Positions 56,654 to 60,591 of a stretch of 64,000 nucleotides of DNA are shown here, piece after piece. The translations under genes were made by a program, and so were the position numbers. The stretch lies in IMG/VR virus record IMGVR_UViG_3300020049_012431, positions 1-64,000 of that record. One strand, 5' to 3'. The notes beneath the pieces are model-generated. The model had not been told where the DNA came from and did not search any database. It saw only the letters and a program-made list of their open reading frames with translations. Each line of letters opens with the position of its first letter. Position 1 is the first letter of the stretch. Source of the DNA: a virus. Lineage: Duplodnaviria; Caudoviricetes.

Positions 56654-57889
56654 TTAATCCTTAGGAAACGATAATACGTCATATTTTAAACATTCTTTAT
56701 AATGTTTATTCTGTCTTTTATCACCATTAAAATATATATATCTATGTTTTTGTTTTCTATCAATGTATTTAAAATTTTCCGAGGATTTGTCTATATCGCT
56801 AGAAGCCAATGTCATAGCATGTCTACTATCACCAAGACTCATATCTTTTCGTTTTTCCGTAATACCTAAGTATTTAAAGTTACATGCCTGATAAATTATA
56901 CCAGAATGCCCTGCTTCTATCTCGGCAAATGTCACTATAATATTTTTTTCTATTAATTTTGAATTTAAACATCTAGCAATAAACCAACTTTCAGTGTTAG
57001 TCGGCAAAAAATCAAGAACCGCCAAACGATTTAATTCAATTACTTGATTAGAAAACTCATTACCACAAATACTCCGCAATCCGGGACTAAATGGTGTGTG
57101 AAAAGTACAGACACCACACAAAACACCATTAGGTAAAAATAATCCAAAAGTATATTCACTAGGTGCTTTTCTTCTTAGATAGTGGTTTTCTAGTAGAAAG
57201 TCTTGTCCTAAATTATAATCTATAAGCTTTACAGTTAATTCGGAATTAAAATTAAATCGATCTCTTTTTAAATTCCTATTCTCAATTTTCTCTCTAGGAA
57301 ATAGATTTCTATAATTTTGTAGTTTATACAAAGCATCCTGTGTTTTTGCTAAAGAAAGGGGTACTATATGGTCAATATCCCAATAATCACCATAGTTATC
57401 CCAGGACATTTCTGGTGTAAAGTTTTTTTCTAAAAATACCTTAAGTTGGTCATAATCATCTAAACCAATATAATCATGGAATTTTGAACTTTTTTTCCAA
57501 CTTTTATTGTCTAAAGCATACCACAATCTATTTCTAATATTTCTCGTTATTTTAAATACAGGGTCAGACTCTAATCGTCTCTTTTGATAGGATCTTCTTG
57601 CTGTATTTACTTTTTCTTTATTTTTATAATAATAATCTAAGCTTTTTTGTTTAATTTCTGTAGCTTTTTTCTCATATCGAGTTTTTTCTTTATTTAAAAT
57701 AACATCTCTGTTGTTACTATAATACTCTTTACGCCTAGCGCTTATCTGGTCTTTTTTTTGTATCCTATGTTCCTGTCCTTGTTTTTTACGACAAGGCTTA
57801 CACTCACTTCTATAACCAGTGGGTGACTCTTTTCTAGGGTGGAATTCGGCTTCTGATTTTTCTTCTAAACATTTTTTACATTTAATCAT
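56654..57889 (-). CDS. Zn-finger/HNH endonuclease fused to a Mom-like GNAT domain
   Basis: CKKC...CKPC; WDIDHIVPL..NYRNLFP; then IELNRLAV, ESWFIARCL, GHSGIIYQACNF. Confidence 0.8.
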   Translation of the reverse strand: MIKCKKCLEEKSEAEFHPRKESPTGYRSECKPCRKKQGQEHRIQKKDQISARRKEYYSNNRDVILNKEKTRYEKKATEIKQKSLDYYYKNKEKVNTARRSYQKRRLESDPVFKITRNIRNRLWYALDNKSWKKSSKFHDYIGLDDYDQLKVFLEKNFTPEMSWDNYGDYWDIDHIVPLSLAKTQDALYKLQNYRNLFPREKIENRNLKRDRFNFNSELTVKLIDYNLGQDFLLENHYLRRKAPSEYTFGLFLPNGVLCGVCTFHTPFSPGLRSICGNEFSNQVIELNRLAVLDFLPTNTESWFIARCLNSKLIEKNIIVTFAEIEAGHSGIIYQACNFKYLGITEKRKDMSLGDSRHAMTLASSDIDKSSENFKYIDRKQKHRYIYFNGDKRQNKHYKECLKYDVLSFPKD

Positions 57890-57895
57890 GCTTAT

Positions 57896-57924
57896 ATCAT
57901 GACATAGATGTTTGGTCTTGTCAA
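57896..57924 (-). promoter_or_regulatory. Sigma70-type promoter, leaderless geometry
   Basis: TTGACA-17-CATGAT, then 6 nt to ATG 57889. Confidence 0.55.
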
Positions 57925-57942
57925 GAAAAATACACAATAAAT

Positions 57943-58002: not shown

Positions 58003-59070
58003 TTACGAAGCTTTAAGATTACTGATAAGCACTGAGCGACCTGGACGTGCGCAAAAAATTGCCTGGTCTGTGTAACATCTCAACTCATATCCAGCGTGAT
58101 CTTCTAGTTCACGGAAGAAGTTACCTTCTTGACCTGGACGTTTGAAAGTAACGTCAGTAGAACCAACGCGTACCCAGTCTTCCAAGCAAAGAACATAAGC
58201 AAAACCTTCTTTTACATAGATAGAAGGAACGATTTCAACCATACCATTTTGTGAATGGAATTTGATTGATTTAGATCCGTTCTCAGCTTGTGCAGAAGAG
58301 AATGAGCTGTCATACATACGTAAAGCAGCTTGCTCAGTTAACAAATCATCCCAGTGTGAAGGATTGACAAGAACCATTACGTCAGTGTCAAGACCTTTTT
58401 CAACACCTTTGCTGATTGCTTGTTGCAAGATTGCAAAAGACAATACAGAAGTGGATGCTGGAGCAAAAGAGCTTCCTTTCCACAAATCATAGCTAGATGC
58501 ACTGATACCGAAAAGAGTACCTGTGTTAGACAAGATTTTATGGATACCAGCAAATTCTTTACCAGCAGCACCTTTGTGCAAGATACGGTCATTAGCAACA
58601 ACTGCTGCTGCTACGGCTGCATCTGCTGCAGAAAGAGTGATAGTTTTGCTGTTCAAATCTACAGAAGCAACAGTAGCAGAAGCGCCACCACGTAATGTAG
58701 TAAGAGTTGGATCATAGATCTCAATTGGCATACCAACTGCACCTGACCAGATACCTGGAGCAAATTCAGAAGATTTGATTGTGATTACAAGACCAACCGC
58801 AATAGCATTAGCCAATCCATACTCAAGTTGTCCATAGATAGCTTCGATTTCAAGCTTCTTTTGGATACTGTCAAGCATAGAACCAACCAAGTACTTAGTA
58901 GCTTCTTCAAACGCGCGCTCTCCTGGACCCATAGATCTAGAAGCTTGAGCGTAAGGCATAGCCGAACGTAATACTAGCTGGTAGCCTTTAACTACAGCAT
59001 CTTTAATTTGTCCCGCAACTGGCGGATTCAATGCAAATGCACCTTCAGTGTCATCTGCGAACGTAACACC
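58003..59070 (-). CDS. Major capsid protein, exon 2 (355 codons)
   Basis: GVTFADD...GQIKDA...RCYTDQAIFCARPG; large ORF between scaffold gene and terminator. Confidence 0.85.
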   Translation of the reverse strand, partial: GVTFADDTEGAFALNPPVAGQIKDAVVKGYQLVLRSAMPYAQASRSMGPGERAFEEATKYLVGSMLDSIQKKLEIEAIYGQLEYGLANAIAVGLVITIKSSEFAPGIWSGAVGMPIEIYDPTLTTLRGGASATVASVDLNSKTITLSAADAAVAAAVVANDRILHKGAAGKEFAGIHKILSNTGTLFGISASSYDLWKGSSFAPASTSVLSFAILQQAISKGVEKGLDTDVMVLVNPSHWDDLLTEQAALRMYDSSFSSAQAENGSKSIKFHSQNGMVEIVPSIYVKEGFAYVLCLEDWVRVGSTDVTFKRPGQEGNFFRELEDHAGYELRCYTDQAIFCARPGRSVLISNLKAS

Positions 59071-59272
59071 CATTTTGTTACTCACTTTTCAGTGGGAGAA
59101 ACCTCTTCGGATTTCTCTCAACCCCTTCTTTTGTTATAGGGTTGTTCAGACTATCGCATCCCTTTCGGGTCCTCTCACTTAGTCGTTCACGCTGCTTTCG
59201 CTTGCGCCCTGTTGTCCGCTTCCGGAGTTCCAAGTCAATCAGAGAAGATTTATACAGCCCCTAGTTAAATTG
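59071..59272 (-). mobile_element. ORF-less group I intron (202 nt) in the major capsid gene
   Basis: P1: exon CAGCCU pairs with GGGCUG with a U-G pair at the splice site; P3 UCUC/GAGA; P7 GACUA/UAGUC; P8 CCC-GAAA-GGG; P9 hairpins; terminal G; removal restores the frame. Confidence 0.9.
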
Positions 59273-59437
59273 AGGCTGGTGGTACGCGTTGCCCGGTTGT
59301 TTGTCTTTGCTAACGAATTTAATACGTTGCAAAACTTTTTTTCCGTCTGGGATCAATCTCTTAAGATTGTCCTCATAAGTTTCTTTGAAAAGTCCATTCA
59401 GCGACGCTGCTGAATTACTTCCTGAAAAATCTGCCAT
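59273..59437 (-). CDS. Major capsid protein, exon 1 (55 codons, absent from ORF track)
   Basis: AAGGAG SD; MADFSGSNSAASLNGLFKETY...KQPGNAYHQP. Confidence 0.85.
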
Positions 59438-59652
59438 TTTAATTCTCCTTTATTTTTTGAATTTTGGCGGTTGTTAAAATGACGCGACATCCGATCTTTC
59501 TTACGTGTTGGTTGTCTTCGGGCAGAAGCTTGCGAAGAGCCGCGCGGCAATACTCCAATAGATTTCGTGTCAATAATATATGTTATTTTAGCTACTTAAA
59601 CACACCCCAGGCCCCCTTACCGAAGTAAGAGAGGCACCAGGGATAAAATACA

Positions 59653-60591
59653 TTAAAATGTTTTAAACAGATCTTTGAACCTTTTTACTGGCTCGTCCGA
59701 TGTCTTTTCTTTAGGTTTAACGCTAGCACCGGTGTCTTTTACTTGTGCTGCAGTGACCGTATTTGCTGGTTTTTTGCTTTTAGACACTTTAGATTTTCTA
59801 TACTTATCTAGGTGTTTTTTACCAACAACGTTTTCCATCACCTTGTCAAACATATCATCCGGAGAAGATTCAAATAATCGGTTTATTTCACCAAGAATCT
59901 GTTCTTCAACAAACGGTAATACTTGTTCAGGGGTAACATCAGCATAACCCATTTCCATAGCAGCAATCATGCTATCTGCCATACGACGGATAACATAAGG
60001 GCTCTTAGGTAGATTACTTTTTCCTAAAGCTTCGGTAATACTATTATCAAGCGTTTCCATTGCTTCTTGTTCAAACTTAGCGCGTTGAGCTGCTTCTTTT
60101 TCAGTTTCAAGAGCTTTTTCTTTCTCTTCTTTTTCTTTAAGTTTAGACTCAAGTTCTTTAATCTGTTTTTGCTCTGGGCTAAGCTGCATTTCTTCAAGTT
60201 CTTCATTAAGTACTTGTTGAGCAAGAGCTTTAATGTCAATACCCAATTGTGGGTGCTTTAAAATAGCGAGAGGATTACTTTTTAATTCATTAACAAGCTG
60301 TTCTACTTGTTTGCGTAAACTTGCTGCTTCTTGAAATTTTTCATCTGCACCAACAGCTTTAGCTAGATATTGTTCGATTTGTTTATCATCTGACCAATCA
60401 ATCTCAATATCTCTTGTTTTATTATTCGCCTTAATTTGATATTTTTTTATCTTACTTTTGGCTTCAAGCTTTGCTGACTCTTCCGCTTCTGCGGCTGCTT
60501 CTTCTGGGCTCAGATCCGCATCAGTTTGTGCTCCCTCATTTGGTGCTGCCTCTACTGGTGCTGCTGATGATTCTATATTTGCTTCTGACAT
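59653..60591 (-). CDS. Capsid scaffolding protein
   Basis: Acidic N-terminus, long coiled coil, directly upstream of the capsid gene. Confidence 0.75.
   Translation of the reverse strand: MSEANIESSAAPVEAAPNEGAQTDADLSPEEAAAEAEESAKLEAKSKIKKYQIKANNKTRDIEIDWSDDKQIEQYLAKAVGADEKFQEAASLRKQVEQLVNELKSNPLAILKHPQLGIDIKALAQQVLNEELEEMQLSPEQKQIKELESKLKEKEEKEKALETEKEAAQRAKFEQEAMETLDNSITEALGKSNLPKSPYVIRRMADSMIAAMEMGYADVTPEQVLPFVEEQILGEINRLFESSPDDMFDKVMENVVGKKHLDKYRKSKVSKSKKPANTVTAAQVKDTGASVKPKEKTSDEPVKRFKDLFKTF

Follow-up and report, generated by a model that had tools for sequence, protein, structure and literature searches.

The group I introns of phage T4 in the td, nrdB and nrdD/sunY genes belong to subgroup IA2 and have been found by experiment to be self-splicing. 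In the orf142 gene of the Staphylococcus phage Twort, three group I introns reportedly interrupt a single gene and lead to exon skipping, as Landthaler and Shub are said to have described in 1999 (PNAS 96:7005, cited in PMC6669764). More recently, open reading frame (ORF)-less group I introns of about 206 nucleotides (nt), which split essential genes and whose splicing was confirmed by metatranscriptome reads, were described in gut jumbo (“Jug”) phages (PMC12880540), and collaborative homing, in which an ORF-less intron is paired with a free-standing endonuclease next to it, has been reviewed (PMC3984707). Here we describe a related situation in the major capsid (major head) gene of a virus of the Caudoviricetes, located in a window, i.e., the whole stretch of DNA that was analysed, made up of the first 64 kb (64,000 nt) of the 78,734-nt IMG/VR record IMGVR_UViG_3300020049_012431, which is rated 94% complete and is a short-read metagenome assembly, not an isolate. 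The gene lies on the minus strand as two exons split by a gap of 202 nt, and this gap is, judging from its sequence and covariation, a genuine ORF-less group I intron, whose guanosine-dependent self-splicing may be predicted from its class. Excision of the intron at the junction in the record keeps the reading frame, yet leaves out seven conserved codons (VVLAMEH). We suggest, with a probability of about 0.65, that the record joins two site variants of this intron across their shared core during assembly, tandem collapse and strain chimera being taken jointly; the intron type is already known, and the phage itself most likely does not lack the micro-exon. The features concerned are as follows.

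59437-59273, minus strand: major head gene, first exon (exon 1) of 55 codons, MADFSG...GNAYHQP, with 91% identity to the 417-amino acid (aa) homolog P0002 over its residues 1-55
59278-59273, minus strand: 5' strand of P1, CAGCCT, the last six bases of exon 1
59272-59071, minus strand: group I intron, 202 nt, ORF-less, with the 5' splice site after U59273 and the terminal G at 59071
59266-59255, minus strand: internal guide, with AACUA (59266-59262) as the P10 strand and GGGGCUG (59261-59255) as the P1 strand
59255-59145, minus strand: catalytic core with P3, J3/4 (GAUUGA), P4, P5, P6/6a, P7 (GACUA/UAGUC), P3', P8 and P7'
59144-59071, minus strand: 3' domain with P9 (AACCC/GGGUU), P9.1 (GAGAAAUC/GGUUUCUC), P9.2 (CACU-GAAA-AGUG) and the tail GUAACAAAAUG with the terminal G
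59070-58003, minus strand: major head gene, second exon (exon 2) with 355 codons and the stop, starting GVTFADDTEG, with the preceding 21 nt for VVLAMEH absent

The initial annotation of this locus had proposed a group I intron in the major capsid gene, with a P1 containing the U-G pair, P3, P7, P8, P9 and a terminal G, and all of these elements were recovered; its range, 59040-59437, reaches from exon 1 across the intron to 31 nt into exon 2. Exon 1 starts behind a good ribosome-binding site and ends in ...KDKQPGNAYHQP, and read-through into the intron gives QFN and then a stop, three codons on. In the minimum-energy fold of the 202 nt (minimum free energy z = -2.4), which contains P1, P3, P4, P5, P6/P6a, P8, P9, P9.1, P9.2 and a tail ending in G, the exon sequence CAGCCU pairs with the intron sequence GGGCUG (59260-59255) and places the U-G at the splice site, while the 3' end of the intron reads ...AACAAAAUG. 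The helix assignment was tested in a core alignment of 72 non-redundant relatives against controls in which the pairing partners were slid by 1-3 columns; 96.6% of the cells were paired in the proposed assignment vs. about 42% (range 40-48%) in the slid controls, and changes on both sides were found in 17 of the 30 core pairs, those of P3 and P7 included. The three variable positions of P3 alternate between UA, CG and GC, and one pair of P7 between AU, GC and UA, and thus the crossing of P3 and P7, that is, the group I pseudoknot, is backed by covariation. With a covariance model built for the core (R1), a single copy is detected in the window, at 120.6 bits and an E-value of 1.8e-27, and the Rfam model RF00028, in a scan that covered this family member, gave no match to the intron either at the gathering score or at E ≤ 10.

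Like the T4 introns, this intron resides in a protein gene of a phage and has the same order of helices, and one T4-like nrdB intron shares with it, by eye, AAUUG-CUGGAA (J3/4-P4) and CGACU...AUAGUCUGRAC (P7). The R1 model, when run against an 18-kb T4-like td-nrdB region, gave a single hit exactly at the 5' end of the nrdB intron, with a non-significant 13.4 bits and an E-value of 0.72. In contrast, the T4 introns are about 1 kb long with endonuclease ORFs in their loops, whereas the intron of the window has 202 nt, no ORF and no P2. We suggest that it belongs to a very large phage family that is T4 IA2-like and undetected by Rfam, its likeness to T4 being a resemblance and not a membership. 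The Jug introns are similar to it in size, in having no ORF and in their abundance in uncultured phages, and they split essential genes such as terL into 2-3 pieces; their phage lineage and host genes differ from those studied here, and the Jug set was detected with subtype covariance models, the likeness to our intron being one of description (PMC12880540). The initial annotation had held that self-splicing control of the most abundant virion protein would be notable in any case, a claim that loses its force given that small ORF-less group I introns in essential phage genes were already described in the same work (PMC12880540).

As to the interrupted gene, the capsid protein found no match in Pfam, and in PHROGs it matched phrog_14242, “major head protein”, with an E-value of 1.8e-14 for exon 2 and of 4e-15 for the homolog P0002. 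An AlphaFold (AF2) model of P0002 built from 47 homologs reached a mean pLDDT, the per-residue confidence score, of 75, and a Foldseek search with this model returned phage capsids as best matches, namely SU10, Pa223, A-1(L) and HK97, with E-values down to 2e-11 and a probability of 1.0. Because of the PHROG match and these HK97-fold matches, the label “major capsid gene” is correct, and the split gene encodes an HK97-fold major head protein.

The joined exons encode 410 aa in an intact frame, with ...GNAYHQP followed directly by GVTFADD, and what is left out is exactly the seven residues that the initial annotation had expected at this place from related capsids. The nearest homologs, which are 88-91% identical over exon 2, have 417 aa and read YHQP-VVL[AG]MEH-GVTFADD. 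Among the best 120 homologs, all 86 with a complete N-terminus keep the segment, down to about 60% identity, the strict motif being present in 79 of them and conservative variants in the other 7. The consensus at the junction is (Q/L)P-[VI][VT][LV]x[ML]E[HF]-G[VI]T; no variation was seen at L58 or E61 and almost none at V56 or H62, and the segment also aligns unbroken in more distant IMG/VR relatives. The 21 nt are not found elsewhere either, as had already been noted for the intron: a degenerate coding pattern for VVL[AG]MEH with 2 mismatches allowed is absent from the window, and no VVLAMEH-like peptide motif occurs in the six frames of the 78,734-nt record. The whole record contains one copy of the intron family and no half-intron, and tandem introns around a micro-exon were not seen in these 78.7 kb.

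P10 of a group I intron forms between the first bases of the 3' exon and the intron bases immediately 5' of the P1 guide, and this provides a means of asking which exon the 5' part of the intron fits. The guide AACUA is complementary to UAGUU, i.e., to bases 2-6 of GUAGUU, the exon start found behind the same intron in one of the independent metagenomes described below (X1). At the junction of the record itself, AACUA does not fit GGUGUU, and only an offset pairing, GUUA/UAAC, is possible. From this preference for GUAGUU it follows that the 5' portion of the intron belongs beside the missing micro-exon. In another relative (L016) with an intron at the same P|V site, the guide AAUUA faces the exon start GUAAUU and the segment is retained as VILGHEH, a compensatory change that argues for a selected P10 pairing.

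Parts of the stretch are present in 20 public runs from 12 studies, and Logan contigs of 4 of these runs, from 4 studies (X1-X4), were placed on positions 58700-59800. Record 6 of X1 (2158 nt) covers 59800-59070 with 11 differences, none of them within the intron, and past the terminal G of the intron it reads GTAGTTTTAGCAATGGAACACGGTGTGACT (TAGTTTTAGCAATGGAACACGGTGTGACTT on the minus strand), which encodes VVLAMEHGVT; the identical intron is therefore inserted here at HQP|VVL with the segment intact. Exon 1 of X1 is about 99% alike to that of the window vs. less than 88% for exon 2. Record 11 of X3 (7197 nt) covers 59251-58700 with three differences and no gap, 180 of 181 nt of the core being the same, and its 3' junction is that of the window, AAAATG|GGTGTTACG (AAAATG|GGTGTT, ..|GVTFADD). 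This X3 copy lies 835 nt downstream of a first intron, the latter inserted after YH (CAGCCT left out), with a changed guide region. X2 contains ...AACAAATG|CAACCAGTAGTCCT|TAACTAAAGCAGGG, a form like that of the relative L007 described below, and also ...TAATAAACATG|TGCTATGGAACAT|GGTGTT. The contigs of X4 break within the core and leave 59255-59357 uncovered, and the 30 letters upstream of the core in its record 15 were matched to no splice site. A 36-nt unitig of X4 has a depth of 53 vs. 26 in its flank; its words are shared by introns of other phages, and it was not counted as evidence. The two junctions of the window were thus observed separately, and as a pair around one intron they occur in 0 of the 4 runs. 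The exact word of the 5' junction is absent from IMG/VR and from the JGI metagenome contigs, and that of the 3' junction from IMG/VR. A 29-mer of P7'-P9 matched related introns in other genes only, and an 18-mer of the intron tail, which was tried as well, gave 23 JGI loci and 1 IMG/VR locus, all of them chance matches in unrelated DNA.

The relatives of the gene show that this place is a cluster of intron sites. The gene is interrupted at the same spot in 4 of 17 IMG/VR relatives. In L007 and L008 (L007:1698-3000), ..AYH is followed by an intron, CAACCAGTAGTTCT, an intron with an HNH ORF, TGGTGCAGAACACGGT, a further intron and GTTACTTTC, the micro-exons having 14 and 16 nt. L018 (1656-2115) has ..LFH, an intron, a 27-nt exon for QPVILGHEH, a second intron and GVTFAG, with a third intron carrying a GIY-YIG ORF further on. 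L016 (1168-1713) has a 13-nt exon (..FHQP) and then an intron at the exact 5' site of the window, with P1 formed by CAGCCU/GGGCUG, after which the exon continues as GTAATTTTGGGTCACGAGCATGGAGTT (VILGHEHGV) with no residues missing. The first intron of L016 (about 1168-1421) looks like a different family. Every junction in these relatives has its own P1 with a U-G pair and a short P10, and a micro-exon plays a double role, its first bases forming P10 of the upstream intron and its last bases P1 of the downstream intron. With these introns excised, L016, L007 and L018, and X1 as well, restore an uninterrupted and complete conserved frame, whereas the junction of the record keeps the frame but lacks the seven conserved codons.

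Altogether, a stretch of only 33 nt contains at least five insertion sites, namely H|Q, P|V, a site inside L58, H|G and G|V, with more upstream and downstream, and in the relatives two or three tandem introns with micro-exons of 13-27 nt share 30-40 nt of the gene; one and the same core, with a different guide each time, is found at H|Q, P|V and H|G, at least three sites in 27 nt. N-terminally truncated ORF calls in 34 of the 120 homologs cluster at residues 53, 59-60 and 62-63 (MQPVVL.., MEHGV.., MGVTFADD.., MVTFADD..), a pattern that is, on the evidence of these gene calls, the signature of introns at those sites. This resembles Twort orf142 in that related introns lie close together in one phage gene, here that of the relatives, and in that short internal exons can be skipped; it is unlike Twort in having at least five sites within 33 nt and micro-exons of 13-27 nt, and in that the micro-exon of the window is missing from the DNA record and not only from an RNA product. 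We suggest keeping in mind, as the point worth retaining from this locus, the density of insertion sites and the presence of the same core at three of them with retargeted guides. The series is compact and natural, and could serve for studying how group I introns are retargeted to neighbouring sites, and its micro-exons may show the minimal length of an exon that has to supply both P10 for the intron before it and P1 for the intron after it.

Two further places in the gene may be mentioned here. At 59386-59394, in exon 1 at about codons 15-18, 7 nt are replaced by an additional insertion, 271 nt long in X2 and 904 nt long in both X3 and X4; this probably marks a further intron site, occupied by introns that do or do not carry an endonuclease ORF. 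At 59010, in exon 2 (G81/Q82), the X1 contigs diverge into ...TTTGGGATAACAAATG, which resembles the 3' end of another intron, and the homologous ORF P0041, which is 97% identical, starts with MQIKDAVV at this same point.

In nature, this intron lineage is inserted at several places within codons 53-64 of the capsid gene. Two of these are relevant here, namely P55/V56, whose guide fits CAGCCU and GUAGUU, and H62/G63, and over about 180 nt of core the variants at the two sites are almost the same. As we read it, the record runs from the 5' junction of the P|V variant straight to the 3' junction of the H|G variant by way of this shared core, and the 21-nt micro-exon for VVLAMEH is dropped together with one intron copy. 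The join was most probably the work of the short-read assembler, either by skipping the loop between tandem copies or by switching between co-occurring strains with one variant each, and the living phage would be expected to encode the normal 417-aa protein. We favour this assembly join because the missing residues are invariant, the junction pair was seen nowhere else, the guide does not match, and the source is a short-read assembly; it is, of course, the in-silico origin of the join that we infer, from an intron, missing codons, separate junctions and a guide mismatch that were observed.

The collapse of two introns around a micro-exon into one, which the initial annotation had already put forward, stands in so far as L018 and L007 show precisely this layout, with the same core at both sites; the join may, on the present data, also be a chimera of two co-occurring strains, which was not considered there. 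Of the two origins that it named, assembly and recombination, an in-silico join is the likelier and an in-vivo one less so. A tandem collapse, if true, should show about twofold depth over 59071-59251 and reads passing from ...AACAAAATG-GTAGTTTTAGCAATGGAACAC through a second P1 region of about 21 nt into TATAAATCTTCTCTGATTGAC, while a strain chimera, if true, should show two populations of reads after 59071, one continuing GTAGTT.. and the other GGTGTT...

Several points weigh against an assembly join. It was judged from assembled contigs; the Logan contigs that support it are short-read assemblies too and may carry joins of their own; the P|V and H|G variants were seen in tandem in one contig in no data set; and the junction words are absent from the IMG/VR and JGI contigs. 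In addition, phages recombine naturally at introns, and an in-vivo join is mechanistically just as possible, as the contrast between the two exons of X1 illustrates.

This last point leads to the alternative that survives best, and which we regard as unlikely, if still appreciable: that the join is real DNA, with homologous recombination between the P|V and H|G variants through the core of about 180 nt, either within one genome or between co-infecting phages, having deleted the micro-exon. The resulting genome would be defective or in the minority, would have been packaged in capsid protein supplied by intact ones, and would have entered the assembly by chance. The near-identity of the site variants over the core (180/181) would favour such an exchange, and single contigs with long-identical tandem family members do exist, as in L064, where near-identical members share an identical run of 49 nt with a similarity ratio of 0.92. 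We retain this alternative at that level because the strain mosaics change at the intron, the mosaicism of X1 switching exactly there; nuclease and intron sites are, moreover, known as boundaries of genetic exchange between phages (PMC10448857). However, a genome without invariant capsid residues should not dominate the assembly of a 94%-complete 78.7-kb contig, and the junction pair is absent from four other metagenomes. Were the 21-nt deletion real, it would amount to “exon skipping at the DNA level”, in which retargeted copies 21 nt apart recombined in vivo, and it would mean that dense intron clusters in capsid genes are unstable and yield defective hitch-hiking genomes or, less likely, a tolerated capsid without the seven residues.

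Much less probable is that this is one ordinary intron in a capsid gene whose product naturally lacks the seven residues and is still functional. The intact spliced frame of 410 aa speaks for it, and the structure alone would leave a short loop deletion possible, the segment running in the P0002 model from the end of strand 51-57 into the following loop with a pLDDT of only 56-74 at residues 56-70. Against this, 0 of the 86 full-length homologs lack the segment, so that the case of homologs naturally devoid of it was not encountered; L58 and E61 do not vary, the distant IMG/VR relatives align through the segment, the nearest strains, X1 and X3, keep it, and the P10 guide fits the missing exon start and not the present one.

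The remaining proposals, both raised in the initial annotation, are that the micro-exon is supplied from elsewhere, by trans-splicing or from a separate locus, or that the ATG ending the intron in frame with exon 2 gives a regulated N-truncated capsid protein from unspliced RNA, and both can be set aside as barely credible, the former being rejected for the 94% of the genome in the record because no VVLAMEH-like coding exists in any of its six frames and only one whole intron copy is present, and the latter being at odds with a terminal (A/U)UG that is a family-wide 3' tail and with an ATG that stands just after the P9.2 hairpin with at most GAG as a poor ribosome-binding site. The tail motif GUAAYA(N1-6) is common to 77 distinct family members and leads to AUG in 39, UUG in 25 and GUG in 4, the family count giving a terminal (A/U)UG in 68/77 whatever the host gene. 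In favour of a start codon, a rough regex count of downstream frames open for at least 60 codons found 24 of 37 in phase with the terminal NUG vs. about 12 (one third) expected, and this excess reflects either a bias to phase-0 insertion or translation that begins in the tail. The intron-terminal NUG is indeed where gene callers place the start of exon-2 ORFs.

The assembly join, if correct, has a practical consequence, since coding sequence can be lost without notice from metagenome-assembled phage genomes when near-identical introns lie a few dozen bases from one another, and a comparison of conserved residues with homologs exposes such deletions. The intron family itself is widespread, its 18-nt core motif being found in at least 119 stretches of IMG/VR (L045-L163); among the matches listed, 2-3 intron copies were observed in L057, L058, L064, L076, L098, L105, L131 and L141, and many copies have ORFs in their P5 or P6 loops. 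By blastn, relatives were found to interrupt a P22-like coat gene in MW202674 and a ribonucleotide reductase gene in Roseobacter phage CRP-118, neither being annotated as an intron. In the former (MW202674.1 16569-18084, L001), the coat gene is given as two coding sequences (CDS), with a spurious “hypothetical protein” of 39 aa called within the intron, and in OR420741.1 34084-36157 (L002) a ribonucleotide reductase gene is given as two CDS with the family member unannotated. The present capsid gene and many genes like it are called as fragments in public records, the genes in MW202674 and CRP-118 being examples, and Rfam is blind to the intron of the window.

Finally, two neighbouring genes on the minus strand deserve a comment. 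Directly downstream of the capsid gene (56654-57937) there is a 427-aa fusion protein with an N-terminal zinc-finger/HNH (EndoVII-like) region and a complete Mom-like domain (Pfam PF25680, E-value of 9e-30; PHROG 1384). An ORF-less intron next to a gene with an HNH/EndoVII-like N-terminal domain recalls collaborative homing (PMC3984707), a likeness of adjacency only; unlike in that system, nothing ties this nuclease to the insertion site of the intron, and the nuclease forms a single protein with a Mom-like domain. Immediately upstream of the capsid gene (59653-60591), a 312-aa ORF rich in E, K and A gave no family match and looks like a scaffolding protein by its position and composition.

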